64,000 bases of DNA, from NCBI GenBank assembly GCA_046757025.1, contig JBHHXN010000003.1:35248-99247 (forward strand). The letters run 5' to 3'. The DNA comes from a bacterium. Its GTDB lineage: Bacteria > Zhuqueibacterota > Zhuqueibacteria > Oceanimicrobiales > Oceanimicrobiaceae. How positions within the stretch are numbered: position 1 is the stretch's first letter; each line of letters begins with the position of its first letter. The notes below the pieces were generated by a model, which did not search any database, was not told the DNA's origin, and was given only the letters and a program-made list of their open reading frames with translations. Shown piece after piece: positions 19,942-43,643 of the stretch. The translations under genes and the position numbers were made by a program.

Positions 19942-20475
19942 TTACCAGCCAGAAACGGTTTTATTTAAGATTTCGTTGGTGATTTTGGTCACGGCTTCGT
20001 TGATGCCGTTTTCCCGGCTCTGTGCTCCTTCGTCGGGGTTAAACGTACCCCACTGCGTAATCTCCTCCTCCCACAGAACTTTGCGTTTCACGAGGTCTTC
20101 ATACCGCACCCGTACGGTGATGAACACCTGGATGTCCTGAACTTTTTCATCGCTGGTAAACGCGCCGGCTCGGTCTACCACCTGCACCACCGTCCCTTCG
20201 ATGAGGGAATCCGCGTTACGTCGGTCGGTGATGCGCAGCGTATTATCTCGCGTAAATTCGTTAATCACTTCCTGGGTGAGTTTTTCTTTGATGCCGAATT
20301 CCGCGGTCTGGTCTTGAAAAACGGGGATGGCCACGGTTTTAATGTGCGTGGCGCCCGAGCTAGAAAAAGAATACGGCCCGCAGGCCGGGCTCACCCACAA
20401 AAATAAACACAACGCTAAACAAATACCGGCTTGCAGTTGAAATAATTCAGATCGAATTTTAGTAAGGTAAATCAT
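19942..20475 (-). CDS. lptE: LptE-family LPS-assembly lipoprotein
   Basis: Start reassigned to the ATG at 20475 (track ORF runs upstream into the neighbouring gene). Signal peptide ending SPA-C-GPYSF, then IKTVAIPVFQDQT...LTQEVINEF...ADSLIEG. Confidence 0.8.
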   Translation of the reverse strand: MIYLTKIRSELFQLQAGICLALCLFLWVSPACGPYSFSSSGATHIKTVAIPVFQDQTAEFGIKEKLTQEVINEFTRDNTLRITDRRNADSLIEGTVVQVVDRAGAFTSDEKVQDIQVFITVRVRYEDLVKRKVLWEEEITQWGTFNPDEGAQSRENGINEAVTKITNEILNKTVSGW

Positions 20476-21610
20476 ACTCTTTGATTTTTCGATAAAGGGT
20501 TCTTTCACTAATTCCAAGCGACTTTGCCGCCTTGCGCTTACTGCCGTTAAATTTTTCGAGCGCACGGTTGACCATAAATCGTTCCAGCTCTTCCAGGGTT
20601 TTGTTTTCAAAGGAAAAGTCGTCAGGGTTTGCGGGCTCCCCGATAATTTCTCCTGCACGCGGCGACACTTCTGAATACACGGGCAGCGATTTCGGTCGAT
20701 TTTCCCGAAACACCAGCTGATAGAGATCATCCCGTAATTTTGAAATTTCCGCTTTCAAATCGAGCAAGGCGTGGTAGATAAATTCACGTTCGACCTGCTC
20801 AGAGGTTCGGTGCGTCGGTACCGGCAAATTGCGGTCGGGCTGGAGAGCGGGTTTCAAATATTTTGAAAGTGCGTACTCATCAACCTGGTTGCCTTTTTCC
20901 AGGACGATGATGCTTTCAACAAAATTCTTCAACTCTCGGACGTTGCCCGGCCAGTTGTGATGTTCCATTATTCGTAAAGCTGACTCGCCGAAGCCTTGAA
21001 ATTCGATATGATTTTGTTTGCAGAAATCGTTTGCGAAAGTCTCGATGAACAAGCGAATATCCTCGCGCCGTTCGCGCAAAGGCGCCACCACGATGCCCAC
21101 CGCATTCAGACGATAAAACAAGTCTTCACGAAATTCGCCGTTGCGCACGGCCTTCTCGAGATTTTTGTTGGTAGCCGCAATGACACGCACATCCACTTTC
21201 TGGACGGTGCTGGCGCCCACCCGCATGAACTCCTGTCCCTCCAGCACGCGCAGCAATTTGACCTGGGTGCTCAACGGCATTTCCCCGATTTCGTCTAAAA
21301 AAATCGTGCCGGTGTCAGCCAGCTCAAAATAACCCTTGCGTGCGCCAACAGCCCCGGTGAACGCGCCTTTTTCATGACCGAACAGCTCCGATTCCAGAAT
21401 GCCCTCCGGAATGGCGCCGCAATTTACGATCACCAGCGGTCGGTCTTTTCGCCGGCTCTGAGCATGGATGGCTTTGGCCACCAGCTCTTTGCCGGTGCCG
21501 CTTTCGCCCATGATCAGTACCGAAATATCCGTGGGCGCCACCTGTTTGATGTTTTCCAGTACCTGGCGCGTTGCAGATGAATAGCCGATTATGCCATAAT
21601 TTTCATTCAT
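20459..21610 (-). CDS. sigma54-dependent enhancer-binding protein (AAA+ and Fis HTH) without an N-terminal sensory domain
   Basis: GESGTGKE, ESELFGHEKGAFTGA, FLDEIG, FREDLFYRL, WPGNVREL, C-terminal KAAKSLGISERTLYRKI. Confidence 0.95.
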   Translation of the reverse strand: MNENYGIIGYSSATRQVLENIKQVAPTDISVLIMGESGTGKELVAKAIHAQSRRKDRPLVIVNCGAIPEGILESELFGHEKGAFTGAVGARKGYFELADTGTIFLDEIGEMPLSTQVKLLRVLEGQEFMRVGASTVQKVDVRVIAATNKNLEKAVRNGEFREDLFYRLNAVGIVVAPLRERREDIRLFIETFANDFCKQNHIEFQGFGESALRIMEHHNWPGNVRELKNFVESIIVLEKGNQVDEYALSKYLKPALQPDRNLPVPTHRTSEQVEREFIYHALLDLKAEISKLRDDLYQLVFRENRPKSLPVYSEVSPRAGEIIGEPANPDDFSFENKTLEELERFMVNRALEKFNGSKRKAAKSLGISERTLYRKIKEYDLPY

Positions 21611-26864: not shown

Positions 26865-28673
26865 ATGGCTTTGATGAATAATATGCGTGAATACACCAAA
26901 ACGGTTTTGATTATCCTGGTGCTGGCGTTTGTCGGGACGATTATCTTCGACTGGGGTATGGACATCTCAGGATTAAAAACCAAACAAGGCGTCATCGGTA
27001 AAGTAAACGGCGTGGAAATTTCAGCACGTCAATACGATGAGGCCTTCGCACGGGAGCTGGAAAATTACCGCAATCGCACCGGCTCGGATCCGCCGGAAGA
27101 ATTGCTCGACAACCTGAGAGAACAGGTGTGGGAATCGCTGGTGCGAGACATTTTGATTCAGGAAGCCATCGCCAAAAACGATATCGGCGCCAGCGACCAG
27201 GAAATTCTCTTCAAAATTTACAACGACCCGCCCGATTTCTTAAAGAATCAGGAAAGTTTTCAGAACGAGCAAAAACAGTTTGACATGGCCCTCTATCAGT
27301 CGGCCCTCAACAACCCCAGTTACGCCACTCAATGGAAACCCATTGAAGATTATCTGCGGCTGACTTTGCCATACGAAAAGTTTCAACACCGATTGCGCGC
27401 CAGTGTCCGAGTTACGGAAAACGAAGTAAAATATGATTACATCAAACAAAATCTGAAAGCCAAAGTGAAATACGTGCTGGTGGATATGAAGCGATTTGAA
27501 TCTCAGGAAATCGAAATCACCGATGACATGATCAAAGATTATTACAACAACCACAAGGATGATTATCAAGAAAATGAAAAGAGGAAAATCCAGTACGTTA
27601 CCTTTTCCACTAAAGCCACAGCCAAAGACAGCTCCGATCTGTGGAACCGGGCAAACGATTTGATTCAGCGCCTCCGCATGGGTTCCGATTTTGCCGACCT
27701 GGCAGAAATCTATTCGGAAGATCCCGGCAGTAAGGACAAAGGCGGCGATTTGGGCTTTTTTGGTAAGGGCATGATGGTGAAACCGTTTGAAGAAGCGGCT
27801 TTCGCGGCCAATATCGGAGAAATCGTGGGGCCGGTTCAGTCCAACTTTGGTTTGCACGTGATCAAAGTCGAAGACAAACGAATCGAAAAAGGCCAGGAAG
27901 AGGTGAAAGCCCGGCACATTTTATTGAAATTCGAAGCATCCCAGGAAACCCTGAACCGCGCCCGGGAAGACGCCAATTATTTTGCCGAGGAGATCAAAAA
28001 ACGGCCGTTTGAAGAAGTGGCAGCCGAGCTCGAAAAAGACGTGCAAACCAGTGAGTTCTTCGAACAAGGCAACGGGTACATTCCAGGACTAGGTTCCAAC
28101 AAACGAGCCAGCTATTTTATTTTTACAAAAGGAGTGGGAACCACGGGTAACGTAGATGAATATTACGACGGTTACTTCGTTTTTCGCATCGCCGATATTC
28201 AGAAAGAACGCATTCAACCTCTTGACGAAGTGCGTGATTCTATAAAAGACATCCTAGTCGCCGAAAATCAAAAATCTCTGGCACTGGAACTGGCGCAAAA
28301 TATTTATGAAAAAACCCAAAACGGACAGTCCCTTGAAGAGGCTGCAGTACAGGATAGTCTGGAAGTCAAAGAAACGCCGCCCTTTAACAAAAGCGGTTTT
28401 GTGCAGAGCATTGGACGTGAACCCAAATTTATCGGTGCCGCGTTTGCGCTGAAAGAAGTGGGCGAGATCTCCCAACCAGTGGAAGCCACCATCGGCTATT
28501 ACATTCTTCAACTCGTGGAAAAAGATCCATTTGACCCAAAACAGTTTGAAGCCAAGAAAGAGCTCTTAACACAGCAGCTGTTGCAACGGAAGCAGAATCA
28601 AGCTTTCGCCGACTGGTACAAAAATGCCAAAGCGAAAGCGGATATTCAAGACGACAGATTTAAATATTATTAG
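26865..28673 (+). CDS. ppiD: PpiD/SurA-family membrane-anchored parvulin peptidyl-prolyl isomerase
   Basis: N-terminal anchor (MALMNNMREYTKTVLIILVLAF), SurA-N region, rotamase motif FADLAEIYSEDPGSKDKGGDLGFF..GMMVKPFEEAAF, ARHILL. Confidence 0.88.
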   Translation: MALMNNMREYTKTVLIILVLAFVGTIIFDWGMDISGLKTKQGVIGKVNGVEISARQYDEAFARELENYRNRTGSDPPEELLDNLREQVWESLVRDILIQEAIAKNDIGASDQEILFKIYNDPPDFLKNQESFQNEQKQFDMALYQSALNNPSYATQWKPIEDYLRLTLPYEKFQHRLRASVRVTENEVKYDYIKQNLKAKVKYVLVDMKRFESQEIEITDDMIKDYYNNHKDDYQENEKRKIQYVTFSTKATAKDSSDLWNRANDLIQRLRMGSDFADLAEIYSEDPGSKDKGGDLGFFGKGMMVKPFEEAAFAANIGEIVGPVQSNFGLHVIKVEDKRIEKGQEEVKARHILLKFEASQETLNRAREDANYFAEEIKKRPFEEVAAELEKDVQTSEFFEQGNGYIPGLGSNKRASYFIFTKGVGTTGNVDEYYDGYFVFRIADIQKERIQPLDEVRDSIKDILVAENQKSLALELAQNIYEKTQNGQSLEEAAVQDSLEVKETPPFNKSGFVQSIGREPKFIGAAFALKEVGEISQPVEATIGYYILQLVEKDPFDPKQFEAKKELLTQQLLQRKQNQAFADWYKNAKAKADIQDDRFKYY

Positions 28674-29270: not shown

Positions 29271-30425
29271 TCAATCGGCCTTATTGTTTGCCAGGGGAAT
29301 GAAAACCAAAAACTCCGAACCCCGACCCTTTTCACTCAACAGTTTGATGCCGCCGCCCATGGAATTGACGATAGCCCTCACCGAAGGCAGCCCCAATCCT
29401 AACCCGCCGCCCATAAATCGGTTTTTACTGGTGCTGTGGTATTTGCTGTCCTGCACCTCGTAAAACTTTTCAAACACTTTGCCCTGTTCTGACTTCTCAA
29501 TGCCGATGCCAGTGTCTTTGACGCTGATGACGCAATACGTATCATCACTTTTTGTGGATACCTGCACGGTGCCATTGTCAGGAGTAAATTTTATGGCATT
29601 TTGAATCAATTCTCTCACGACGCCTTTTATTTGTGTCACGTCCGCAACGATATTGAGTGGGGATTTATGCTTAACAAAGGTCAGGGATTGATGTCTTTGT
29701 TTTGCGATTATTTGGTATTCAGTCACTATTTTTTCCAGCAGAGTATTTACTTCAATTTTTTCTTTGGCGAATTCCACTTTTCGATTTTCGACGTTAACCA
29801 GGTTGTGCATATTGGTGACAATTTCTTCCAGGTCATCGATGGCGTCCAGGATGACATTCAAACATTGCTTTTTTTCTTCTTCGGAAAGTTTGTAGAAATG
29901 CTCATCTTCTAATATTCCCAGGTAGCCCCGCAAGTGACTCACCGGCGTCCGTAATTCGTGACTGGTGATGGCGATGAATTTGTCCTTCATCTGTTCTAAA
30001 TCCAGCAATTTTTGGTTAGCCAATTTGAGGGCTCTGTTTTCTTCATCCAAATGAATTTTTTCAAAACATCTCTCAGCCACGTGTCGAATTTGATCCGGTT
30101 TGATGGGTTTTAAGATGAAATCGTACGCACCTTTTTTCATGGCGGCGATGGCGCTCTGAATCGTGGCGTACGCAGTCATGATCACCACTTCTGTGTGCGG
30201 GTAATCTCTTTTGATGGCTTCCAGCAGCTCCACCCCGTACATGATAGGCATTTTCAAATCTGTGAAAACCAACTCATAGGTCTTTCCCCGCATACGTTCC
30301 AGCGCTTCAATGCCGTTGGCAGCGAGGTCCACCTCATAGCCTTTTTTGTTCAAACTGCGGTAGCAAATATTTCGGATAATTTCCTCATCATCCACAATCA
30401 ACACATTTTGCGAAACCTGTTCCAT
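29271..30425 (-). CDS. Hybrid receiver-histidine kinase (REC-HisKA-HATPase), cytoplasmic
   Basis: VLIVDDE...FTDLKMP receiver; TSHELRTP H-box; LIQNAIKFT, KDTGIGI, GGLGLGL. Confidence 0.93.
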   Translation of the reverse strand: MEQVSQNVLIVDDEEIIRNICYRSLNKKGYEVDLAANGIEALERMRGKTYELVFTDLKMPIMYGVELLEAIKRDYPHTEVVIMTAYATIQSAIAAMKKGAYDFILKPIKPDQIRHVAERCFEKIHLDEENRALKLANQKLLDLEQMKDKFIAITSHELRTPVSHLRGYLGILEDEHFYKLSEEEKKQCLNVILDAIDDLEEIVTNMHNLVNVENRKVEFAKEKIEVNTLLEKIVTEYQIIAKQRHQSLTFVKHKSPLNIVADVTQIKGVVRELIQNAIKFTPDNGTVQVSTKSDDTYCVISVKDTGIGIEKSEQGKVFEKFYEVQDSKYHSTSKNRFMGGGLGLGLPSVRAIVNSMGGGIKLLSEKGRGSEFLVFIPLANNKAD

Positions 30426-30427
30426 AG

Positions 30428-30736
30428 CTATTTTTCTCTTTCTGTACCCGCGATACTGAGACTTTCGGATTTTTTACAATTTTCAATGTGGATAATATTT
30501 TGAAACTCGAAAACTAAATCTTCCAACCGACGCGCCTGTTTCTCAATTTGAACGACATCTCGGTAAATGGGGTGATCCTGATCGATCTCCTCTTTGATGA
30601 GCGCGCAATAGCCGGCAATTCCCGTGAGCGGCTGATTCATTTCGTGGCCGATCATTTCGGCTAATTCCAACACGGACTGCAATTTTTTGTGTTGTATGAT
30701 CTCATCTTCAAACTCTTTCGTGCGGTTCTTGTTCAT
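30428..30736 (-). CDS. Stand-alone HisKA/DHp-domain protein with no ATPase domain
   Basis: KKLQSVLELAEMIGHEMNQPLTGIAGY H-box; 102 aa; stop codon 2 nt before the start of the REC-HK. Confidence 0.75.
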   Translation of the reverse strand: MNKNRTKEFEDEIIQHKKLQSVLELAEMIGHEMNQPLTGIAGYCALIKEEIDQDHPIYRDVVQIEKQARRLEDLVFEFQNIIHIENCKKSESLSIAGTEREK

Positions 30737-31128: not shown

Positions 31129-31839
31129 TTATAACGAAATTGTTTTATATTCTTCATATAATGACATGACATGTGGAATAAAATTCGTGGTTTCTGCCAG
31201 CAAGATGCCATCGGCTTTGTCGTTGGATAACCAGACCGCCGCTCGTTTCTCGCCGCCGCTAAAAGCCGCTAGCCCGCCTTCCAGCTCGTAGTTATTGATG
31301 AGCGCCGAAAGTCGCCGGCAGCCGATACGAATGTTGTAAATCGGATTGAACAAGATTTCCTGTGTAGAAGTCCAGGTGATGTTTTCATAGTATGCAACCC
31401 ACAAGCCGGTGGTCGGCATTATCTGCATCAAACCCATGGCTCCGGACTCCGAAACAACTTCCGGATCCCAAGAGCCGCCGCTGGCCTGGGTAATGGTGGC
31501 ACTGATCAGGTCGATATCCAAATTCGTATATTTCACGCTCATGTTGTAAATTTCTTCGGCAATTTCATATTTCATGCTGGATGGCATTTCGGTATTGTAT
31601 TTTTCAATGATGCTCATGACTTTTTGTATGTTGTATTGCCGGATACTATCGACATTCATGGCAGCCCGTATTTCCTGAAGGGTCTTTTCCAAATCCATCA
31701 ATTTGGGATTTTTTTGCACCGGATTCACCCAGAAGATTTTGTAATAAAGGGTCACCATGCCGATGACGACAGCCACGACTATCAGCCCTCTTGCAATCAT
31801 GGAGCCCACAGGGAGCAGCTTGTCAATGCTTTTGGACAT
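31129..31839 (-). CDS. Membrane-anchored SLT (lytic transglycosylase) domain protein with degenerate catalytic motifs
   Basis: GAMGLMQIMPTT and NPIYNIRIG retained; motif I reads ITQAS (no Glu) and motif III reads LAAFSGG (normally AYNxG). Confidence 0.82.
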   Translation of the reverse strand: MSKSIDKLLPVGSMIARGLIVVAVVIGMVTLYYKIFWVNPVQKNPKLMDLEKTLQEIRAAMNVDSIRQYNIQKVMSIIEKYNTEMPSSMKYEIAEEIYNMSVKYTNLDIDLISATITQASGGSWDPEVVSESGAMGLMQIMPTTGLWVAYYENITWTSTQEILFNPIYNIRIGCRRLSALINNYELEGGLAAFSGGEKRAAVWLSNDKADGILLAETTNFIPHVMSLYEEYKTISL

Positions 31840-32489: not shown

Positions 32490-33101
32490 TTAAATATTAT
32501 TGGTCTTGAGCACGGTTCGAATTTCTTCGATGGATTTTTTCACCACCACATTTAAACTCTCGCTGATGGCCTGAACTACCCCCACGGGCGCCTTGGAGGC
32601 GGCCGGAGTTTTTTCGGTAATGGTTTTTTCCCAAACGATTTCATTGTTTGCGGAATTGTGCAATTGAAACTCCAGCGTCACGATGCCAAACCAGGCCTGG
32701 CTTTCATCCCACTCTTCAAAGGCCAGGATCCGACCTTTTAAAATATAGTCAATTTTAAAAGTCGAGGGCAAATTGACCACTCTTTTAAAAACACCAGACG
32801 CCCGATAATGTTTATGAACGGTTTCGGCGACGATTTTCTTTGGCGGCGCCACCCACCTTCTGTAATGATAAAATTGCACTTCGTATGGCGAATATCGATA
32901 AACAATCTTATCGTTTTCGAATAAATGGTCCGCGGTGAATGGAGCGATTCCCAGGGTGATGGGAATGATATCGTTATTGTGCGGATTGGGCGCTTCCATT
33001 TCGTAATCCACACGATAAAAATAGGTTGGCGGAACCCCGCCGCAGTGACAAAAAACCAGAAAAGAGGAGGTAATCAAAAGGGTTGCGATTAATCTATTCA
33101 T
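32490..33101 (-). CDS. ABC-type transport auxiliary lipoprotein (PqiC-like)
   Basis: FCHC lipobox, PTYFYRVDY, IVYR..PYEVQFYHYRRWVAPP, YILKGRILAFEE; last gene of the mla-like operon. Confidence 0.82.
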   Translation of the reverse strand: MNRLIATLLITSSFLVFCHCGGVPPTYFYRVDYEMEAPNPHNNDIIPITLGIAPFTADHLFENDKIVYRYSPYEVQFYHYRRWVAPPKKIVAETVHKHYRASGVFKRVVNLPSTFKIDYILKGRILAFEEWDESQAWFGIVTLEFQLHNSANNEIVWEKTITEKTPAASKAPVGVVQAISESLNVVVKKSIEEIRTVLKTNNI

Positions 33102-33132
33102 CCAATAAATTCCTTTTTGGTGTTAAATTGCG

Positions 33133-34035
33133 TTAAGGGATCTTTCTTTCTGGCGGAGCAGCTTTTCGAACCAATAGCCAGGGTCGTTCTTTCACTATTC
33201 TGGTAAACTCTTCCAGGTTTTGGGAAGCATATTGAAAATTTTCCATTATTTCCACGATATTTGTGCTGTTATCGGTCATCATGTTTTCCAGCAGCGACAA
33301 GGTCTGCCGCATTTCTGCGATCAGCAGGGTGGTTTCTTTGGTGGTGCTATCCAAATGAGAGATGGTCTCACTGAAATTTTCTTTGTTGTGTGCAAGTAAC
33401 TCCTCCACCTCCTTGCTCATGGCAGCCAAATTGGCCGTTAAATTTTCCAAATTGCGCATGACGTTGACAAAACGGCTCTGGCCGTTGGTGATCATACTAT
33501 CCACACCGGCCAGCACAGAGTTCAAATGTGCGCGGTTTTCATCGTTGAAAATCGAAACCACGCGCTCCATAAACTCCTGCAGTTGCTCATTCAGCTCGCC
33601 AAACGGCTCGGCCATTTGTGTAAAACTGAGCACTTCCTTGCTTTCCAGCACGCTACCCTGCGGCAGCAGATCGGCATCAAGCGAACCAGCAGATATCTCG
33701 ATGTGCTGATCGGCCATGATACCGACGGAGGTGACATACGCTTTCGAATCCACCCGCACCGGTGTTTTCTGGTTAATTTTAATTTTAACAGTGATGGCGC
33801 TTTGAATTTGGTCCGGTAGCTTAATTTCAGAGACAACACCGACGTCCATGCCGCCGTATTTCACCAGCGAACCTTTGGAAATGCCGCCAACATAGCGTAA
33901 ATAAGTGGTGTATTCTTTGGTTTCTTCTCCCACATCGATTCCAAATATCACCACCAAAAAAACGATAAAGATGGTCAGGCTGATAAAAATCATCAACCCC
34001 GCTTTAATTTCATTTGGCTTAAAATTCATACCCAA
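33133..34035 (-). CDS. mlaD: MCE/MlaD family protein with a long C-terminal helical region
   Basis: EIKAGL anchor, GISKGSLVKYGGMDVGVV MCE motif, SVGIMADQHIEI, C-terminal RPWLLVR. Confidence 0.88.
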   Translation of the reverse strand: MGMNFKPNEIKAGLMIFISLTIFIVFLVVIFGIDVGEETKEYTTYLRYVGGISKGSLVKYGGMDVGVVSEIKLPDQIQSAITVKIKINQKTPVRVDSKAYVTSVGIMADQHIEISAGSLDADLLPQGSVLESKEVLSFTQMAEPFGELNEQLQEFMERVVSIFNDENRAHLNSVLAGVDSMITNGQSRFVNVMRNLENLTANLAAMSKEVEELLAHNKENFSETISHLDSTTKETTLLIAEMRQTLSLLENMMTDNSTNIVEIMENFQYASQNLEEFTRIVKERPWLLVRKAAPPERKIP

Positions 34036-34046
34036 CTCCTTACGTA

Positions 34047-34838
34047 CTAAGTGCTGCCGGTGAGGGTGTTCAGGAATTTCTCCCGATCGATCTCGTCGTC
34101 GTCCGGCACCCGGTTAAAAAACTGCTGCGTCACCGGACTAGGGTTGTTTTTTAGCTCCTCGGTGGTTCCTACAGCAAGGATTTTTCCCTCGTGCATCATC
34201 GCGACGCGGTCGGCAATGATTTCCACCGAAGCCAGCTCATGCGTCACGACCACGATGGTCATTTTAAAGGCGCGCTTGAGCCTGAGGATCAACTGGTCGA
34301 TGCCAGCCGCCACCACCGGATCCAATCCGGCCGAAGGTTCATCGCAGAACAGGATTTCCGGATCCATGGCCAGCGACCGTGCCAGACCAGCGCGTTTTTT
34401 CATGCCGCCTGAAAGCTGGGAGGGTTTAAAATTTTCAAATCCGGAAAGCCCCACCAGATCTAACTTCATATTCGTCATGATTTTAATGGTACTCTCTTCG
34501 AGCTGCGTGTGCTCGCGCAAGGCCAGAGCGACATTGTCGCCCACGGTCATGGAATTGAACAGGGCTGCCGATTGAAACAGCATCCCGACTTTTTTCAAGA
34601 GCTCCACTTTTTCGGACTCCGTCATGGTGGTGATGTCATGACCTTTAATCAGAATCTGCCCTCGGGTGGGCACAGATAAACCGATGATATGCCGCAGTAA
34701 GGTACTTTTTCCGCAGCCGGACTTGCCCAAAATCGCGATGGATTCACCTTTGTTAATGTCCAGATTGATGCCATCCAGAATCGTGCGGTTGCCGTAGGTA
34801 ACGACCAAATCTCTTATTTGGATGATGGGCTCTTCCAT
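34047..34838 (-). CDS. mlaF: ABC ATPase, MlaF/Mkl family
   Basis: GKSGCGKS, LFQSAALF, LSGGMKKRAGLAR, FCDEPSAGLDP, VVTHE. Confidence 0.93.
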   Translation of the reverse strand: MEEPIIQIRDLVVTYGNRTILDGINLDINKGESIAILGKSGCGKSTLLRHIIGLSVPTRGQILIKGHDITTMTESEKVELLKKVGMLFQSAALFNSMTVGDNVALALREHTQLEESTIKIMTNMKLDLVGLSGFENFKPSQLSGGMKKRAGLARSLAMDPEILFCDEPSAGLDPVVAAGIDQLILRLKRAFKMTIVVVTHELASVEIIADRVAMMHEGKILAVGTTEELKNNPSPVTQQFFNRVPDDDEIDREKFLNTLTGST

Positions 34839-34844
34839 GCGCGC

Positions 34845-35648
34845 TTAAAAGGCAGAATAAAATAATCCCGTAAAAAAAACATCCGCGGCAATGATTAAAA
34901 ATATCGAAGTGACTACGGATTTGGTGGTGGATTTACCCACCCCTTCTGCGCCGCCTTCCACGTTGAAACCTTCATAACTGCCAATATTGGCGATGATCAA
35001 CGCAAAAAAAACGCTTTTAATCAACCCGCTGAACAGGTCTTTAAAAACCAGCGCGGAAATGGTTTGGTTGATGTAACGAACGCTGGTGATATCCAGTGTC
35101 GATATGGAAATCACGTATCCACCAACGATTCCGATGAAATCAGCCAGGATGGTTAAACAGGGCAGCATGATCAACATGGCAAGGGTGCGCGGAACCACCA
35201 GGAATTTTATCGGATTAAATCCCATAGTTTTGAGTGCATCGATTTCTTCGGACACTTTCATGGTGCCGATTTCGGCGGTAATAGCCGAGCCATTCCTTCC
35301 CGTGACGACAATGGCGGTTAGCAGCGGCGACAGCTCGCGGGTGATGGATACCGCCACTAAATTGGCCACGTAGATGGTGGCGCCAAACTGCTGCAGCTGG
35401 TACGCCGACTGCATGGCGATGATCAAACCCACAAAAAACGCGATAAGCCCGACAATGGGGATGGATTCATAACCTATCTTGACCATTTGCTCAAAGGTGC
35501 TTTTCCAGCCTATCGTTTGACCTTTGATGGGCGCCATGAAAGTCCAATAAAATGTGCGGTAAGCCAGCACGGCTATCCGGTTTAAATGACCCAAAAAATT
35601 GAAAGCTGTGCGGCCGATGATGCCAAACAATTTTATTACAAAAGTCAT
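34845..35648 (-). CDS. mlaE: ABC permease, MlaE family
   Basis: RELSPLLTAIVVTGRNGSAITAEIGTMKVSEEIDAL, GAEGVGKSTT. Confidence 0.93.
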   Translation of the reverse strand: MTFVIKLFGIIGRTAFNFLGHLNRIAVLAYRTFYWTFMAPIKGQTIGWKSTFEQMVKIGYESIPIVGLIAFFVGLIIAMQSAYQLQQFGATIYVANLVAVSITRELSPLLTAIVVTGRNGSAITAEIGTMKVSEEIDALKTMGFNPIKFLVVPRTLAMLIMLPCLTILADFIGIVGGYVISISTLDITSVRYINQTISALVFKDLFSGLIKSVFFALIIANIGSYEGFNVEGGAEGVGKSTTKSVVTSIFLIIAADVFFTGLFYSAF

Positions 35649-35649
35649 G

Positions 35650-35985
35650 TTAATCTAAGGCGGTTTTGGCTTCTTCGATGGAAGGAAAGATGTCAAACAC
35701 TTTGTCTAATCTACTCAATTCAAAAACGTCTTTTACGGCGTCGCGTAAATTTGCTAATCTCAATTTGCCCCCGTACTTTTTCACCTGTTGTAACGCTTCA
35801 ACTAAAGTGGCTATTCCGGAGCTGTCCATGTATTTCACGTTCTTTAAATCAACCAATATTGCTTTATGTCCGGCTTTTGTCAATTCAAGAAGTTCTGTCC
35901 TCAGGCCGGGTGAAGTGTATAAATCGACATCACCATCCACCTCGACCACCTTTAACAAATTATCCGTTAAAACTCTAACTTCCAT
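35650..35985 (-). CDS. STAS-domain protein (RsbV/SpoIIAA-like; occupies the MlaB position)
   Basis: VDGDVDLYTSPGLR, VDLKNVKYMDSSG, VFELSRL; coupled to both neighbours. Confidence 0.9.
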   Translation of the reverse strand: MEVRVLTDNLLKVVEVDGDVDLYTSPGLRTELLELTKAGHKAILVDLKNVKYMDSSGIATLVEALQQVKKYGGKLRLANLRDAVKDVFELSRLDKVFDIFPSIEEAKTALD

Positions 35986-36404
35986 CAGCTCTCCTTCTTT
36001 CCGGGTAAATATTTTGTCAAGGTTAACTCGTTGCCTTCTTTCAGTGTCGTGTTGTAATAAACTCGATCCATGGTACTTTTTATCAAATGAACTCCCAATC
36101 CGCCGGGTCTAATGTCATCTAAATCCCGTGACTTAATTTTCTTGGGGTCGGCTTTTTCACCAAAATCACGCAGCACGATTTCCAGTCGGTCATGGAGCAG
36201 GCGAAAAATAATCACGATGGGTTTATTCGGTGCGCCGTTGTAAGCGTGTTTAATGATATTCGAAGCCGCTTCATCCACCGCCAGGATCACGGCATTTCGC
36301 TCTTCCTGCGTAAATTCACATATATCGCACAAATGCGACACACCGCATCGTACGACTTTCAGTAACTGAGGGTTGCTCGGAATTTTGATTTCAATTTCAT
36401 CCAC
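35985..36404 (-). CDS. RsbW/SpoIIAB-like anti-sigma factor Ser kinase (HATPase_c_2)
   Basis: LAVDEAASNIIKHAY, LRDFG, RPGGLGVHLIKSTMD; GTG start with GGAG RBS; TGATG overlap with the STAS gene. Confidence 0.9.
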   Translation of the reverse strand: MDEIEIKIPSNPQLLKVVRCGVSHLCDICEFTQEERNAVILAVDEAASNIIKHAYNGAPNKPIVIIFRLLHDRLEIVLRDFGEKADPKKIKSRDLDDIRPGGLGVHLIKSTMDRVYYNTTLKEGNELTLTKYLPGKKES

Positions 36405-36599
36405 AGATGCTTCTCCGCTTGCTCAATATGGCTTTTAATAAAAAATGTCTCATTCGTTTCTGTTTGACCCCCATCGCAACGCTTGTCTCGCCGCTGATTT
36501 TCCTCCGATCAATTTATGGTAGAATCTGTATAGTCCCGCACCTGCTGGTTGCGAAAAAGCGGTCATTTCAGGCTTCAGGTTCAAACGGTTCAAAAAAGA

Positions 36600-37937
36600 T
36601 CACCGCCACCTAAAGGCAACAATGGTCAAATCGTCGGATTGTTCGGCGTCGTTGACAAATCGCTGCACGTCATTTAACAGATTGGCAACCAAAGCTTCGA
36701 CAGTCGAGTGCTCTTTCAACAACGTATTTAAAGTACGTTTTAACGTGTAGAAGTCTTTCGATTTATTTTTAGCTTCAATGATGCCATCGGTTATTAAAAT
36801 GATAAATTCGCTTTGCTTCAATTGAAGCGATTTCTCCGTAACGCTAAATGAGTCTATAATTCCCAGAGGCACGGTTTTACCATCTCGTATGAGATGACAT
36901 TCGCCTTTCTCTGGATTCACCTTGATAAACGGAATGTGCCCGGCATTGGCATAGGTGAACCTGCCGGTGGCGGTGTTCAACAGCCCATACTGAAAGGTGA
37001 CAAACATCCCTCGACGACTGCGATCCACCAAAATTTTATTTAAAGCCTTTAGGACCTGGGATGGATATTTATATATTTGCGAATAAATTCGAAAATCACT
37101 GACAAACCGCGCCATGTAAAGCGCCGCGGGAATCCCTTTCCCGGTGACATCGCCGACGGCCACACCCACGGTATCGTCATCGATTTTGACGACATCAAAA
37201 AAATCGCCGCCGATGGAAGTGGCTGGCAAACTTTTGGCCGCAATGGAAATCGTCCCTTCCGGGAAACTGGGAAAAGACTCGGGCATGAAACTCTGCTGGA
37301 TAAATTTGGCCGCCTCCAGTTGCTGCTCCAGCTTTTGCGCTTCCAGCTTCATTTTGTACATACGGGCATTTTCGATGGCCATGGCGACCTGGCGACAAAA
37401 AGTCGAAAACAACTCCAGATCCTCGTTGTTAAAGGCTTCCCCGTCTCTTCGGTTGATCACCTCAGCCACACCGATGGTTTTATTTTTCACTATCAACGGC
37501 GCGGCCAGGATGGAGCGGGTTTTGAAGCCGGTGTCGCTGTCAACCGTCGGGTTAAAGCGCGGATCGGTAAGCACATCCGGCACTATCTGCGGTTCACCAT
37601 GTTGCGCCACCCAACCGGCGATGCCCTCGCCCAATTTCAACTGCATGTTTTTTTTAACTTGCTCGCCGACGGAACCAAGGGCGACCGCGCATTCGAGAAT
37701 ATTCTTCTCTTCGTTTAATAACATCACCGAGCTGGCTTCCGCTTTCATCACAGCCTGGGCTTTTTCCATTACCAGCTCGATAAGCTCATCCAATTCCAGT
37801 GCAGAATTGATGATGATGCTCACTTCGATTAAACTTGAAAGATCCTTGACTTTGCTGCGCAGTTGATGCAATTCTTGCGTCACATTTTTCATGTTTAATC
37901 TATCGGCATTGATGCTTTCTTGTTTAATTTTAACCAT
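36600..37937 (-). CDS. GAF + SpoIIE/RsbU-type PP2C phosphatase
   Basis: GAF region (GEGIAGWVA, SILAAPL), IGGDFFD, VGDVTGKG, ANAGH, ITDGIIEA, DDLTIV. Start probably 37937 or 37892 rather than the track's 38099. Confidence 0.92.
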   Translation of the reverse strand: MVKIKQESINADRLNMKNVTQELHQLRSKVKDLSSLIEVSIIINSALELDELIELVMEKAQAVMKAEASSVMLLNEEKNILECAVALGSVGEQVKKNMQLKLGEGIAGWVAQHGEPQIVPDVLTDPRFNPTVDSDTGFKTRSILAAPLIVKNKTIGVAEVINRRDGEAFNNEDLELFSTFCRQVAMAIENARMYKMKLEAQKLEQQLEAAKFIQQSFMPESFPSFPEGTISIAAKSLPATSIGGDFFDVVKIDDDTVGVAVGDVTGKGIPAALYMARFVSDFRIYSQIYKYPSQVLKALNKILVDRSRRGMFVTFQYGLLNTATGRFTYANAGHIPFIKVNPEKGECHLIRDGKTVPLGIIDSFSVTEKSLQLKQSEFIILITDGIIEAKNKSKDFYTLKRTLNTLLKEHSTVEALVANLLNDVQRFVNDAEQSDDLTIVAFRWR

Positions 37938-38400: not shown

Positions 38401-40953
38401 ATGAATTTGGTGAACAAAGTTATTTTAGACGGCAAGTACAAAATCGTTCGAGAAATCAAACAGGGTGGCTTCGGAATTGTATATTACGGCATCGATAACA
38501 ATCTCAACAAACCGGTGGCGATAAAAGAAATCGCCCCCACCTTGCTGGAAGATCCCAAATATCTGGATATGTTCCAGGATGAAGCGCTTAACATCGCCAA
38601 GCTGAGCCACAATAACATCATTCACATTTATGAGTTCAGTAAGACTGCGGATGGCCGCTTGCTCATCATCATGGAATACATCGACGGCCGGGACCTGGAA
38701 AAAATTTTGCGGATTCTCAAAAAATCCAACCAGAGATTGCCTGTGCATTTTGCCGTTTACATCATCGCGGAAATCTGCATGGCCCTGGACTATGCGCACC
38801 ACCGCCGGGATGCGTTCACCAACAAGCCGCTGAATTTAGTTCACCAGGACATCTCGCCTTCCAATATCATGATTTCGCGTTTTGGCAGCGTCAAGCTCAT
38901 CGATTTTGGCATTGCCTCGGTTAAAAGGCATCAAACCAAAGAGAAAAAAGATAACAAATTGCGCGGCAAAATCCCTTACATGTCTCCGGAGCAATTGATT
39001 ATGGGAAATCAGCCGGACCACCGTTCCGATCTTTTTTCACTGGGGCTGGTGCTTTTCGAAACGTTGACGGGAGAACGTCTTTTCAATGCTCAGGAAGAAG
39101 TCATCGCCGCCGGTAAAAATCCCAAATGGTTCAAAAAAGCCATAAAAGGGAAAAGACTGCCTTCGAACCTCGAAAAAATCTTATCGAAAGCGTTAGAGAT
39201 CGACATGACCCGGCGCTACCAGAACGCCAATCATATGTACATCGACTTGCTGCAGTATCTCATTTCCTGTAACGAGACCGGAGAATTGATGGACAGTCTC
39301 GCGGACTACATCAACGCGAATTTCTACAATGGCGCTCAGGATTTGCCGCACACACCGCATTTGAACAGCACCAGTGAACAAATCAGTCCGTACGGGCCGC
39401 CCTATCCGCCCACGCCTGCGGTTTCCAACCACTGGCTGCCGCAACAAAATGAGCAAAGGGAGCCGGTCAGCCCGCCTCAAGCTGCAGACCAGTTCCTCTC
39501 GGAGAAATACCGATTTACCAGCGACAGCCGGTTTGCGTCCACAGAAATCGCCGATCCGGACGATGAAGAACTGAAAACCGTCATCGACGTCATCCGCATT
39601 TCTGCGCGAAATCATAAAAAACGATTTTTGCAAGTCACCATGGCATTGTTGTTTGCCGTGTTGACTTTTGGAGCGTTGGACACCATTTACGGCTGGACCA
39701 AAGCGGGAATCTGGGTGTACGACTGGTTGTTTCCGCCAGCCATCGAGATCACCACCATTCCACCGAACGCAGAAATCTTCATCGATGATGAAAAAGTGGA
39801 GGGCGCCACGCCAGCAGCCATCGACAAAATTACGCCGGGCGTGCACAAACTCGAGCTGCGCGTGGCCGGCTACAAACCCATTGTGAAATCTTTATTTGTG
39901 CCCCGAGAAGGCGGCGTGAAAATTCAAGGGGAAAACGGCCAGGCAAATAAAAGACGCTATTTGTTCAACTTCAACACCGAAATCGAGATAAATTCCCAAC
40001 CCGCCGAAGCCGTGGTGTACTTAAACGGGATTCGTTATAATCAAAAAACGCCGTGCAAATTTACCTGGGAAGTGGGCAATCCGCTCTCCATCGAACTGGA
40101 GCGCAAAGGCTTCAACAAACTCACCGGCTACAGCTTGAACACGGAAGAAGGTTTTGATGTCGTTGAAGACCGCAGATTCTGGGATATGAAGGTATTTAAT
40201 AATGAATATAAGGGATATGCCATAACGGGAATTTTCAACAAAGAAATTTATTTTGAATCGGTACCGGCGGGTGTTGAAATTTTCGACACCATCTCTAATA
40301 AATCATTAGGGGTTACGGGCAATAAAATTGTGCTGAAATCGGGAACCTACGAAATTGAATTCAGAAAAAGCCATTTTATTCCTAAAAAAATGCAATTAGA
40401 GGTGGATGAAAAAATCAACGAAAAAGTGACGGCTGTGCTCTCACGCAAGGTGAGATTTTCTGCGGTCAGCAAAGATGATCCGGCCAAAAAAGACCTCGCA
40501 GCCCAACTGGTCAGTCTCAAACGCGGCCTCAATAACTCCTTGCGAAACCGCCGGGTCACGCCATTTGAAATGACTTTGCCGGCCTACACTTACACCGCGG
40601 TGTTTCAAAAAGCCGGCTACAGCGAAGTACAAGTGACGGTGCGGCCCGAGATGCAGTCGGTGCGCGTAGAAATGGAACTCATCAAAACCATTGTCGAAAT
40701 GGAAGTTTTAGACGCGCTCTCGGCTCAACCTCTCGGAGATGCAGAAATTTATTACCGTCGTGCTGCCGAAACGTCGTCGTCGGACTTGTTTTTTGATCAG
40801 ACCGCTGAAACAGGCGATGCGCTGGGCTATCTTACGCCCGGCAATTACATTTTTACCATCAAGAAAATAGGTTACGTACCGTTGACAAAATCCGTAAAAA
40901 TCAATTCGGCGGAAAGCCAAATCATTCTATTTAAACTGTTTCTTTCTAACTAA
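38401..40953 (+). CDS. Transmembrane Hanks-type Ser/Thr kinase with periplasmic PEGA-like domains (paralog 1)
   Basis: QGGFGIVY, VAIKE, HQDISPSN, IDFGIA, YMSPEQ, DLFSLG; TM around aa 412-435; PEGA-like repeats (TIPPNAEIFID...GATP...GVHKLELRVAGY). Confidence 0.92.
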   Translation: MNLVNKVILDGKYKIVREIKQGGFGIVYYGIDNNLNKPVAIKEIAPTLLEDPKYLDMFQDEALNIAKLSHNNIIHIYEFSKTADGRLLIIMEYIDGRDLEKILRILKKSNQRLPVHFAVYIIAEICMALDYAHHRRDAFTNKPLNLVHQDISPSNIMISRFGSVKLIDFGIASVKRHQTKEKKDNKLRGKIPYMSPEQLIMGNQPDHRSDLFSLGLVLFETLTGERLFNAQEEVIAAGKNPKWFKKAIKGKRLPSNLEKILSKALEIDMTRRYQNANHMYIDLLQYLISCNETGELMDSLADYINANFYNGAQDLPHTPHLNSTSEQISPYGPPYPPTPAVSNHWLPQQNEQREPVSPPQAADQFLSEKYRFTSDSRFASTEIADPDDEELKTVIDVIRISARNHKKRFLQVTMALLFAVLTFGALDTIYGWTKAGIWVYDWLFPPAIEITTIPPNAEIFIDDEKVEGATPAAIDKITPGVHKLELRVAGYKPIVKSLFVPREGGVKIQGENGQANKRRYLFNFNTEIEINSQPAEAVVYLNGIRYNQKTPCKFTWEVGNPLSIELERKGFNKLTGYSLNTEEGFDVVEDRRFWDMKVFNNEYKGYAITGIFNKEIYFESVPAGVEIFDTISNKSLGVTGNKIVLKSGTYEIEFRKSHFIPKKMQLEVDEKINEKVTAVLSRKVRFSAVSKDDPAKKDLAAQLVSLKRGLNNSLRNRRVTPFEMTLPAYTYTAVFQKAGYSEVQVTVRPEMQSVRVEMELIKTIVEMEVLDALSAQPLGDAEIYYRRAAETSSSDLFFDQTAETGDALGYLTPGNYIFTIKKIGYVPLTKSVKINSAESQIILFKLFLSN

Positions 40954-40964
40954 TTTTATGTCGT

Positions 40965-43643
40965 ATGCCAAAACTGCTCATCAAAAAAAATAACGCCCTC
41001 ATAAAAAAAATATCGGTTCCAACAGATATTTTGGCGTTTACCGTGGGCTCGGAACAGGGCAACGACATCATCATCCAGGATGAAAGTATTTCCTACTTTC
41101 ATTTGCAGTTTGAAAAACAGGACGATGATTACTTTGTCCGTGATTTGCAGAGCCAATGGGGGACTTTTGTGAACGGCAGAAAGATTTCGAATCGCACGAT
41201 ATTGATTGACCAGGATGAAATTGGCATTGGTACTCATAACATTACTTTTTTAAACGCAAAAGCAGAAACAGAAAAAGCGCTGGTTGCGGAAAATCATGAG
41301 TCGGGTCAATTTGCCGGAGAAACCAAGCTCGAAGAACGCATTGCCGGCATTCCTACCCTGAACAGACTGAACTCATGGATCCACAGCGAAGAGTTCAAGA
41401 TGGAGAAGCAGGGTGATTTTTACATCGACCAAAACAACGGCGACGAATTCACAGAAAGCCTCAGCGAAACCGATGAAATTTTACAGTCAACGCAGCCGGA
41501 TCCCTCATTTAATCTCCTCAACCACAACCCAAACGGACCAAATCACGAGCCAAATGAATTTGTCGATGTGCGTGATAATGGCCCAAAGGAGAGCCCGCCG
41601 CCTCAGCTCGATTTCTCACCAGAGCCAAAATTTGAAGCGCCGCCTCTCAAGACTCCGACGCTGGAATTCGAAGACGATTTCAAGGTTAAATTAGAGGAGC
41701 CCATTCAAAAAGCCCGCGCCGTGAATAATTATTTTCTACTGGGCATTTATGGTTATTACACGGGAAGAGTCTTCCGGCTCAAGCATCCGGAAACCAAAAT
41801 CGGCCGTGACCGCAAACTCAACGATATCGTCATTAAGAAAAATTCCAAAGGTAAAATCGATCAGAGCGTGTCGCGCCGCCAGGCTACCATCTTGTCAAAG
41901 GATAATAGATTTTACATTACGGATAAAAGAAGCAAAAGTCGAACGGCCGTCAACCAGCAAAAGCTCGATTTTAACGATGAGATTGAAATCAATCCGGGAG
42001 ATGAAATTGAAATTATCAGCGACCGTAAAAGTCATATTTTGCGTTTGGTGCAAAAAGAGGAATGGGATTTTTCTTTTCCGAAAAAGGCCGGCTCCTGGCA
42101 TCTCCGACACCGAGTCAAAATTCTCAATTTTTATTCCTTACTATTGCTGCTGATTGCTGGGTTTTTTGTGGCTAAATCCATGAACACACTGAACAAAATC
42201 CTCTCAAAGCCGGATCCGTTCTCGGTTTCGGAATCGCTCTGGTACACTGGCGAAATCGATTTAGCCGTGAAGCCGTCATCGACAGCGCAACTTCAAAACT
42301 ACCTGGCCATTGCGGATTTTAACGGCGACCGGACGCTCGATCTCGTTTATATTGATGAAAACGAGCATTTGATTTGCATCAATGGCAAATCGAAACAACC
42401 GTTGTGGCAAATCTCGGAATTTAAAACGTTTTCAGACTATTCTATCACCATCGAGGACTTGAATAACAACCATCTGCCGGACATCATCGTGGTCTCGAAA
42501 GACTTTCGCATCCGCGCCATCGATGGCAACTGGGGCATCGAAATTTGGAAAAGCCGCATTCTGGCAGGTCCGTTAACCGGGCCGCCGGTGGTGGGCGATT
42601 TTAACGGCGACGGTTTCAAGGACCTGGCCGTGGCTTCCACGGAGAACCTGGTGTACATCGGCTTTTCAGGATTAAAAAATTCACACTGGATTCAAATTCC
42701 AGTGGAAGCGCAAATTCGCTCCATCCTGACAGCCAGCGATATCACCGGCGATGGATTCCGGAACTTGGTGCTTGGAACGGAGTCCGGCAAAATTTTGGTC
42801 ATCGACGGTGTCAAGCAAACGGTTTCTGAGGAAATCAATATCAACGAAGAGCTGAATAAAGCCAGTGGCAGCTACTTTCAGGACAACCAGATCCGCTATC
42901 CCATAGCTACCGGTGATTTGAACGGCGATACGGTGAACGACCTGCTCATTTGCACACTGCAAGGCAACCTCATTGCTATCGACGGCCTGACCCTGGAAAG
43001 GATGTGGTACGACCTCGCCAGCGACAAAGTGAAATTTGAGCATCCCACTTTTCCCAGCATCGTCATGGGAGATTTGGACGGGGACCATTTACCGGACGTG
43101 GTTTCCCTGACTCCGGATGGCAGATTACGTGCGATAAAAGGCGTGGGTGAGCGCAAAGACCGTAAAATGTTACTCTGGGAAATTCCGGCCATTGAAACCG
43201 AATATTTTGTGGGACAGCCCGTGCTGGCCGATTTCAACAAAAATGGCACCGTGGACGTGGTGGCGGTCAACAACCTGGGGGGATTGTTTATTTTCGAAGG
43301 CGTCACTGGCGATATTCTCTGGAAAAAAAAACAGAGCGAACATGCGATCATAGGCTCACCGCTCATCGGAGATTTGGATACGGATAGTCATCTGGATATC
43401 CTCACATTGCGAGCCAATGGCGATTTTGTAAAATATACCACAAACAGCTTAACCCTGGATGGCTCCGTATTCTGGGGCCAGATGTTCGGAAACGGTCGCC
43501 ATAACAGCCGATCATTTTACAAGGTGTATCATACGTCACAGCACTATGTGATTATCTGTTTATCTTTGATGGTCGTCGCTACCGTAATGGGCTTACAAAT
43601 TTTCTTTAGAAAAAAGAGAAAAAAGTTAAGTCAAATCCAGTAA
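40965..43643 (+). CDS. FHA-FHA-TM-FG-GAP(VCBS) beta-propeller-TM membrane protein (paralog 1)
   Basis: FHA1 (ISYFH, DLQSQWGTFVNG), FHA2 (KIGRD, SVSRRQ), TM, many DFNGDG/DLNGD/DLDGD loops, C-terminal TM followed by RKKRKK. Confidence 0.88.
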   Translation: MPKLLIKKNNALIKKISVPTDILAFTVGSEQGNDIIIQDESISYFHLQFEKQDDDYFVRDLQSQWGTFVNGRKISNRTILIDQDEIGIGTHNITFLNAKAETEKALVAENHESGQFAGETKLEERIAGIPTLNRLNSWIHSEEFKMEKQGDFYIDQNNGDEFTESLSETDEILQSTQPDPSFNLLNHNPNGPNHEPNEFVDVRDNGPKESPPPQLDFSPEPKFEAPPLKTPTLEFEDDFKVKLEEPIQKARAVNNYFLLGIYGYYTGRVFRLKHPETKIGRDRKLNDIVIKKNSKGKIDQSVSRRQATILSKDNRFYITDKRSKSRTAVNQQKLDFNDEIEINPGDEIEIISDRKSHILRLVQKEEWDFSFPKKAGSWHLRHRVKILNFYSLLLLLIAGFFVAKSMNTLNKILSKPDPFSVSESLWYTGEIDLAVKPSSTAQLQNYLAIADFNGDRTLDLVYIDENEHLICINGKSKQPLWQISEFKTFSDYSITIEDLNNNHLPDIIVVSKDFRIRAIDGNWGIEIWKSRILAGPLTGPPVVGDFNGDGFKDLAVASTENLVYIGFSGLKNSHWIQIPVEAQIRSILTASDITGDGFRNLVLGTESGKILVIDGVKQTVSEEININEELNKASGSYFQDNQIRYPIATGDLNGDTVNDLLICTLQGNLIAIDGLTLERMWYDLASDKVKFEHPTFPSIVMGDLDGDHLPDVVSLTPDGRLRAIKGVGERKDRKMLLWEIPAIETEYFVGQPVLADFNKNGTVDVVAVNNLGGLFIFEGVTGDILWKKKQSEHAIIGSPLIGDLDTDSHLDILTLRANGDFVKYTTNSLTLDGSVFWGQMFGNGRHNSRSFYKVYHTSQHYVIICLSLMVVATVMGLQIFFRKKRKKLSQIQ

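Follow-up and report, generated by a model that had tools for sequence, protein, structure and literature searches.

The window analysed here is a stretch of DNA of 64,000 nucleotides (nt) from a bacterium of the Zhuqueibacterota (Oceanimicrobiaceae), covering positions 35,248 to 99,247 of the forward strand of contig JBHHXN010000003.1 in assembly GCA_046757025.1. Between window positions 32490 and 37937 it carries seven genes on the minus strand; three of these encode the proteins of a partner-switching module (a serine phosphatase, a serine kinase and a STAS protein), and the other four encode an MCE-type ABC lipid transporter, which we suggest to be the output of the module. Every Pfam match within the seven genes exceeded the curated cut-off. 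All coordinates in the window are given for the minus strand unless another strand is stated.

The first gene encodes a phosphatase of 445 amino acids (36600-37937) with a GAF domain (Pfam, 2.7e-21) and a PP2C domain of the SpoIIE type (5e-46). A longer alternative frame with a GTG start extends to 38099, and homologues align from the ATG at 37937 instead. It is followed by an RsbW/SpoIIAB-like serine kinase of the GHKL type (35985-36404, 139 amino acids, GTG start; Pfam HATPase_c_2, 3.8e-24) and a single-domain STAS protein (35650-35985, 111 amino acids; Pfam STAS, 2.7e-24), in which the sequence was read as Y-M-D54-S55-S56-G57, with the codons of D54 to G57 at 35815-35826. The MlaE permease (34845-35648, 267 amino acids; Pfam MlaE, 6.6e-85) also passed the cut-off of NCBIfam model TIGR00056 with 265 bits. 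The MlaF ATPase (34047-34838, 263 amino acids; Pfam ABC_tran, 2.3e-34) shares 43% identity with E. coli MlaF; its best NCBIfam match was the MlaF model, at 222 bits and under the equivalog cut-off of 441.

The last two genes encode an MlaD-type MCE protein (33133-34035, 300 amino acids; Pfam MlaD, 4.9e-14), probably translated from the ATG at 34029, and an ABC_trans_aux (PqiC-like) protein (32490-33101, 203 amino acids; Pfam ABC_trans_aux, 3.5e-12). As read from the sequence, the former has a membrane helix at its N-terminus, and its long C-terminal part is helical, with coiled-coil-like matches over residues 190-275; the latter has a hydrophobic N-terminus in which Cys residues occur. Permease, ATPase and MCE-domain protein are thereby all present, as they are in an MCE/Mla-type ABC transporter. 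The Pfam scan found no MlaC or MlaA gene in the operon; the search of the whole genome gave no MlaA match and placed MlaC-like domains on contig C4 only. As the MlaD is long, an ABC_trans_aux protein is encoded and the operon lacks MlaC and MlaA, a periplasm-spanning or lipoprotein-assisted route is suggested, rather than the shuttle of E. coli.

An earlier reading of these letters, made by a model and here called the sequence-only reading, had described a GAF-SpoIIE phosphatase, an RsbW-like kinase and a STAS protein with D-S-S-G, with mlaE, mlaF, mlaD and a PqiC-like gene behind them, kinase and STAS overlapping by 1 nt, a 1-nt gap before mlaE, and no sigma factor gene adjacent. This description was borne out in full. 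Each gene lies where it was placed, with Pfam matches above the cut-offs; the kinase stop codon TGA and the STAS ATG overlap by one base; one nucleotide separates the STAS stop from the mlaE ATG; and no sigma factor gene was detected among 13 flanking open reading frames scanned with Pfam.

The kinase profile was closest to B. subtilis RsbW (6m36_A, 1.4e-27), with SpoIIAB at 3e-14. Against the two NCBIfam equivalog models of RsbW it scored 86 and 79 bits, under cut-offs of 145 and 155, and we therefore regard it as a relative of RsbW and not as RsbW itself. Invariant in 41 kinase sequences were D44, the N-box residues E45 and N49, D80 and G82 of the G1 box, and G101-G104 of the G2 box. In a 60-sequence alignment of the phosphatase the metal-binding aspartates D245, D263, D384, D435 and D436 were equally invariant, and D54, S55, S56 and G57 of the STAS protein were identical in 41 of 41 aligned orthologues. 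As catalytic and acceptor motifs are thus invariant, all three parts of the partner-switching module are intact and under selection. S55 is presumably the phospho-acceptor, and the phosphatase presumably the sensor and input of the module.

Of the components that define a partner-switching system, STAS protein, kinase and phosphatase were found, and a cognate sigma factor held by the kinase was not. One explanation would be a canonical module, in which the kinase sequesters a distant sigma factor or other regulator, the STAS protein antagonises the kinase only, and the transporter genes are merely a co-transcribed regulon. The closest relatives of kinase and STAS protein, B. subtilis RsbW and RsbV (8e-18), do have SigB as their output, and such modules are common in this genome, which has 21 STAS and 24 HATPase_c_2 matches. 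The sequence-only reading had itself named a sigma factor encoded elsewhere as a finding that would count against it; in the genome (94.8% complete), no sigma factor of the SigB/F/G family was found above the cut-off, the best match reaching 116 bits against 234, and the two best matches are RpoD/RpoS-like and lie on other contigs. Together with the gene order and the contacts described below, this makes the canonical explanation quite unlikely in our view.

The genome encodes some six further kinase-STAS pairs, each with adjacent partners of its own. The window also contains an orphan single-domain STAS gene (16088-16432; Pfam, 1.8e-11) just downstream of a GT2 glycosyltransferase gene, with no kinase gene beside it; it counts among the 21 STAS matches of the genome.

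To describe how far the arrangement is conserved we started from the STAS protein, which had 229 relatives at E <= 0.001 in a large protein collection. Nearly all were 110-127 amino acids long with 50-79% identity, and the few named ones carried the labels KSB1, Caldithrix or just "bacterium". Two motifs from the STAS alignment were then scanned through one genome per species, which gave at least 596 confirmed loci. Neighbouring genes were counted in the best 80 of these by tblastn with the seven window proteins, and it should be noted that the denominators are the loci with room for the gene in question. Record titles of the 80 loci name KSB1, Calditrichota, Gemmatimonadales, Methylomirabilota/NC10, Nitrospirota and Nitrospinota, and further Thermodesulfobacteriota/Desulfarculia, Glassbacteria, Acidobacteriota (Sulfotelmatobacter) and Latescibacterota; the phylum spread, at least 8 named phyla, was read from these titles, a few of which are implausible.

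The kinase was found directly upstream of STAS in 77 of 77 loci with at least 0.5 kb of room; where at least 2 kb was available upstream, 59 of 65 loci had a phosphatase homologue there. Of the 74 loci with 1 kb or more on the other side, 72 carry mlaE downstream of STAS on the same strand, and homologues of mlaF, mlaD and the ABC_trans_aux gene were present in 67/67, 64/67 and 47/61 loci, respectively. The median distance between the kinase and STAS genes was -1 nt, and that between STAS and mlaE 5.5 nt. Because it recurs in related loci of many phyla, the gene arrangement is far beyond chance. The canonical explanation fares poorly here also, since no sigma factor gene stood between module and mlaE at any locus, the spacing was tight, and the STAS-mlaE junction measured a few nucleotides across phyla.

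A second sample consisted of 41 genomes drawn evenly from the window's own phylum, in which STAS proteins were scored against the orthologue profile. All 41 genomes have MlaE. A STAS orthologue of at least 128 bits was present in 17 of them, and in 17/17 it lay directly upstream of an MlaE match, which was the genome's best-scoring MlaE in 16/17; the exception is G029, where the gap between STAS and MlaE is about 1.4 kb. In the remaining 24 genomes the best listed STAS match scored at most 97 bits, and among the top 150 matches listed none stood beside an MlaE match. The gene order in the 80 loci and the 17 of 17 orthologues beside MlaE show, therefore, that module and transporter are inherited as one unit, and the synteny survey that the sequence-only reading had proposed as a check thus came out in favour of a conserved linkage.

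In several relatives extra DNA of 0.6-3.9 kb was observed between STAS and mlaE or between mlaE and mlaF. This applies to loci L042 (8100-11967), L050 (7306-8672), L072 (7306-8174 and 8965-9966), L036, L035 and L055.

By profile comparison with solved structures the STAS protein was closest to TM1442 (1.3e-21), followed by B. subtilis RsbV (8e-18, as given above) and SpoIIAA (1e-14), and NCBIfam placed it in the anti-sigma-factor-antagonist superfamily (ant_ant_sig, 89 bits against a cut-off of 53). A plain MlaB orthologue was considered as its identity and rejected, since both profile and NCBIfam assign it to the RsbV/SpoIIAA class. Also rejected was the use of D-S-S-G as a mark of phosphoregulation in its own right; the motif alone is no argument for phosphorylation, because MlaB and the STAS domains of kinase-less fusion proteins (see below) retain Ser/Thr at this site.

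The complex of MlaF and STAS was predicted with a 41-row alignment for each chain, taken from the same loci, and with three controls. The models reached ipSAE interface scores of 0.82, 0.81 and 0.81, against 0.00, 0.01 and 0.00 for the controls; the pLDDT confidence of the partner was at least 89, and contacts agreed to at least 97% between runs. The mark applied to such models is reached by 116 of 157 solved complexes and by 2 of 215 mismatched pairs. In the predicted interface, residues 107-128, 158-159 and 190-191 of MlaF face residues 21-29, 54-63 and 86-92 of STAS, and S55 and S56 appear central, with contacts to MlaF residues 117, 121, 124 and 159 that are among those of lowest predicted error. 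The stretch 107-128 of MlaF (34455-34520), which includes the motif LREHT, belongs to the helical subdomain, and the model seems to match the docking of MlaB on that subdomain known from similar complexes already solved. A modelled STAS-MlaF complex had also been proposed as a check in the sequence-only reading, and the outcome (ipSAE 0.81 against 0.01 for the best control, with S55/S56 predicted at the centre) supports it.

S55 aligns with Thr52 of E. coli MlaB (hhalign probability 81%, 43 columns). According to the available text of Kolich et al. (2020, PMC7367683), Thr52 stands in the centre of the contact between MlaF and MlaB, and binding is weakened by the phosphomimetic change T52E; MlaB binds the helical subdomain of MlaF, in a geometry like that of our model, and is required for association of MlaF with MlaED and for ATPase activity. 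The same text describes a C-terminal extension of E. coli MlaF, of which Tyr261, Leu265 and Leu266 dock in the MlaF-MlaB groove. The window MlaF has a comparable extension (residues 247-263, 34050-34100, by alignment with E. coli MlaF), where F255 and L259 align with Tyr261 and Leu265. The length of the tail is similar in cross-phylum orthologues, and at least 90% of 41 sequences keep L259. On the STAS side the interface residues R29, A59, T60 and E63 are present in 41/41 orthologues, whereas each of them occurs in at most one of the 12 paralogous STAS proteins that the genome encodes. Inspection by eye for co-variation of STAS positions 22-23 with MlaF, in the Nitrospirota subgroup, gave no clear signal.

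The genome has a second MlaE-MlaF-MlaD locus, on contig C16 (37000-49000; L081, 3806-6294), where no STAS, kinase or phosphatase gene was found. The MlaF of this locus, 250 amino acids long and 44% identical to the window MlaF, has LYNHT in place of LREHT and no tail. It may be added that the locus adjoins a LexA gene and a gene for a GBBH-like small protein.

Phylum relatives that do not have the module possess other MCE operons, in which MlaE and an N-terminal STAS domain form a single fused protein; this was seen in 3/3 proteins scanned with Pfam and in 7/7 fetched sequences by alignment (L086, 2104-3234 on the minus strand; L087, 2970-4091 on the plus strand; L088, 1379-2476 on the minus strand; and L089-L092). 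The fused proteins are 365-378 amino acids long and belong to operons of the order MlaD-aux-(STAS-MlaE)-MlaF. Their STAS domains have 14-20% identity to the window STAS and keep D-[ST]-[AS]-G, and neither kinase nor phosphatase was found among 12 open reading frames scanned at these loci. The MlaF proteins of fused operons have no C-terminal tail; LREHT and a tail of 17-23 residues are common to E. coli MlaF and the MlaFs of the present operon type, which are all paired with a free STAS, and both features are absent from the STAS-less paralogue and from six MlaFs of the fused type. A fusion at the exact junction of the free STAS and mlaE genes is classical sequence evidence for what would be a physical partnership. 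Our literature search, which did not extend to domain databases, found no description of STAS-MlaE fusions.

Five independent lines, namely the complex model, the alignment of S55 with Thr52, the MlaF tail, the STAS-MlaE fusions and the group-specific residues, agree that the STAS protein belongs to the transporter. None of them, nor the predicted interface as such, is explained by a canonical module. They also bear on the claim, made in the sequence-only reading, that the STAS protein is a phospho-switchable MlaB: docking on MlaF at the MlaB site is supported by the prediction and by the tail and the fusions, two lines which that reading had not foreseen, and membership of the MlaB family is not upheld by sequence.

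The same lines bear on the possibility that it is the kinase and not the STAS protein that holds MlaF or MlaE, in the fashion of an anti-sigma factor, and that the transporter is set free when unphosphorylated STAS captures the kinase. This would retain the canonical wiring of partner switching, and the kinase is linked to the operon as tightly as STAS is, in all of the 77 loci. Against it, the model places STAS itself on MlaF where MlaB would bind, both the tail of MlaF and the fusions favour direct contact between STAS and transporter, and the fused paralogues work without any kinase. We hold such a kinase-mediated control to be unlikely.

Conversely, the STAS protein could be a constitutive structural subunit like MlaB, with kinase and phosphatase acting mainly on other STAS proteins or targets. 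E. coli MlaB and the fused STAS domains do function without a dedicated kinase, and many other STAS proteins are available in the genome. The kinase and STAS genes, however, overlap or abut nearly everywhere (gap of at most 10 nt in 71/79 loci), the catalytic boxes of the kinase and D-S-S-G are invariant across phyla, and the other kinase-STAS pairs mentioned above have partners of their own. A purely structural STAS subunit therefore seems to us very unlikely.

Computation shows which domains the proteins have, that their catalytic motifs are intact, how the genes are ordered, where MlaF and STAS are predicted to touch, and how MlaF compares with its relatives. From these results we put forward, as moderately likely, a partner-switching module that has an MCE lipid transporter as its output. 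In this reading the operon encodes an MCE-type ABC lipid transporter made of MlaE, MlaF, MlaD and an auxiliary lipoprotein-like protein, together with a cytoplasmic STAS subunit that would be the substrate of the dedicated RsbW-like kinase and GAF-PP2C phosphatase. Like E. coli MlaB, unphosphorylated STAS would dock on the MlaF helical subdomain and be clamped there by the C-terminal tail of the adjacent MlaF, which would support an assembled, active ATPase. The kinase would bind the same face of STAS and phosphorylate S55, and the phosphate, lying in the middle of the interface, would release STAS from MlaF. The phosphatase would reverse the phosphorylation upon ligand sensing by its GAF domain.

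In the solved SpoIIAA-SpoIIAB and RsbV-RsbW complexes the kinase covers this same face of the STAS protein, so that STAS should be able to bind either MlaF or the kinase but not both at once, as in a true partner switch. STAS would then be the switching element between MlaF and kinase, with lipid transport and not transcription as the output; in other words, a regulatory transporter subunit of RsbV-type build that has retained its kinase and phosphatase. What we infer in this scheme is that S55 is phosphorylated and what this does to binding, as well as the direction of the regulation (on or off), the signal read by the GAF domain and the lipid substrate. Extended beyond the window, the proposal says that a widespread family of MCE transporters (at least 8 phyla and, by motif, at least 596 species-level genomes) is gated post-translationally by partner switching, with an RsbV-like STAS toggling between MlaF and kinase under a GAF-sensing phosphatase, and this we give an even chance of being correct.

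Several observations weigh against the proposed switch. The STAS protein matches MlaB weakly (P. aeruginosa, 4e-4; E. coli, 0.21), and no MlaB model was among its NCBIfam matches at 1e-5. E. coli MlaB and the fused STAS domains, which have no kinase, likewise retain Ser/Thr at the acceptor site, and the conserved face of STAS would be kept for kinase binding alone too. As MlaF-MlaB complexes have already been solved, the high score of the complex model may reflect likeness to these and is not proof, and its controls took in neither a paralogous STAS nor a STAS-less MlaF.

Gene linkage, surveyed in the 80 best of at least 596 loci, also has its exceptions. Six of 65 loci (L014, L027, L047, L051, L054 and L061) lack a phosphatase gene next to the operon, and there the upstream neighbour is an unrelated gene, for instance polA. 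In 2 of 74 loci the kinase-STAS pair stands without mlaE; L051 has unrelated genes downstream and L080 a transposase gene about 2.3 kb downstream of STAS, and we treated both as lost or rearranged linkage, or as a paralogue. In the window, phosphatase and kinase genes are 195 nt apart, and the stop of the phosphatase gene coincides with a terminator-like hairpin and T-run (36599-36624), a feature that the sequence-only reading does not mention; the phosphatase may be transcribed or attenuated apart from the kinase-STAS-mla genes. Except for this hairpin the promoter and terminator scan is uninformative and at chance level overall; it gave 11 promoter-like and 14 terminator-like sites, where 10.2 and 8.5, respectively, were expected.

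Around the operon, a Ser/Thr protein kinase with PEGA domains (38401-40953, plus strand) lies upstream and divergent, followed by an FHA/FG-GAP beta-propeller protein (40965-43643, plus strand). A Ser/Thr kinase of the PEGA type is the divergent neighbour in L014 as well, a locus where the GAF-PP2C gene is missing. Downstream are an SLT lytic transglycosylase (31129-31839) and then histidine kinase genes; here a HisKA-only open reading frame of 102 amino acids (30428-30736) ends 2 nt before a REC-HisKA-HATPase hybrid kinase (29271-30425), and the two may be a split or remnant histidine kinase. Other envelope genes nearby encode an LptE-domain protein (19942-20730) and a SurA-like peptidyl-prolyl isomerase of 602 amino acids (26865-28673, plus strand).

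E. coli MlaFEDB with its STAS subunit MlaB was reportedly described by Thong and colleagues in 2016. How active MlaB is regulated is treated as open in the available text of Kolich et al. (2020, PMC7367683), where phosphorylation of Thr52 is called intriguing but unsupported and no E. coli kinase is identified; this agrees with the sequence-only reading, which had held that MlaB has no established dedicated kinase or phosphatase. It was the only paper we found that combines MlaE, STAS, "serine kinase" and phosphatase, and it raises phosphoregulation of MlaB as a question. We found no paper that joins a partner-switching kinase or phosphatase with Mla or MCE transport, and the supplementary data of Grasekamp et al. 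(2023) may list STAS-mla synteny for some of the phyla concerned. MlaB was absent from the partner-switching papers found, and partner switching, RsbW and SpoIIE were absent from the Mla papers found. As far as these searches reach, the new elements are the combination of module and transporter, its breadth across phyla and an identifiable direct target; modules with outputs other than a sigma factor, and MlaB itself, were already known.

If the proposal is true, this would be the first partner-switching module directly controlling an ABC transporter, and a natural instance of the phosphoregulation proposed, and never found, for MlaB. Regulation of lipid traffic to the outer membrane is poorly understood, and the operon family supplies what E. 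coli lacks, a dedicated kinase and phosphatase whose genes, in many phyla, are tied to those of STAS and transporter. As both are encoded in the operon, the phosphoregulation hypothesis can be tested directly with four or five purified proteins. Partner switching would reach beyond transcription and govern a membrane transporter directly, and one of the many "orphan" modules outside the Firmicutes would receive a defined target. A further suggestion is that KSB1, Calditrichota, Nitrospirota, Nitrospinota, NC10 and other phyla adjust the transport of envelope lipids to a signal from inside the cell, which a GAF domain reads.

Compared with the Bacillus systems RsbU-RsbV-RsbW-SigB and SpoIIE-SpoIIAA-SpoIIAB-SigF, the present module has the same three protein types, with intact catalytic motifs and D-S-[ST]-G. 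It differs from them in that no sigma partner was found, either adjacent or above the cut-off in the genome, in the proposed output, which would run from STAS to an ABC ATPase, and in the GAF domain as the input domain of the phosphatase.

Partner-switching-like modules that have the STAS protein as effector and an output other than a sigma factor are known from Bordetella (BtrU/W/V) and Pseudomonas (HsbR/HsbA). In the SypE-SypA module of Vibrio fischeri, which is likewise of this kind, the STAS protein is the effector, and the available text of the sources describes the mechanism of SypA as unknown (PMC10120452, PMC4517449); in the Hep-layer module of Anabaena, also with a non-sigma output, the available text again gives STAS as the effector (bioRxiv 10.64898/2026.04.08.717354). 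Modules of this kind resemble the one proposed here in that the phosphorylation state of a single-domain STAS protein controls a non-transcriptional, envelope-related process. Unlike in those, the likely direct target, MlaF, can be identified here from gene order, fusions and structural precedent.

The STAS-MlaE fusion transporters have STAS immediately N-terminal of MlaE, as the gene order is here, whereas their STAS is covalently attached, no neighbouring kinase or phosphatase was seen in the scanned frames, and their MlaF is tail-less. With E. coli MlaFEDB the window operon shares the MlaE/MlaF/MlaD transporter and a free-standing STAS protein encoded in the operon and predicted on the helical subdomain of MlaF, as well as S55 at the position of Thr52 and an MlaF tail with matching hydrophobic residues. 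In contrast to E. coli, the STAS protein is here of the RsbV/SpoIIAA class and not of the MlaB family, and its gene lies upstream of mlaE, where that of MlaB is last in the operon. The operon is also without MlaC and MlaA and has an ABC_trans_aux protein and a long MlaD; MlaA, MlaB and MlaC are sparsely distributed and the long MlaD is the common form, according to the available text of Grasekamp et al. (2023). Finally, phosphoregulation is only a hypothesis in E. coli, while the operon described here has a kinase and a phosphatase that seem dedicated to its STAS protein.

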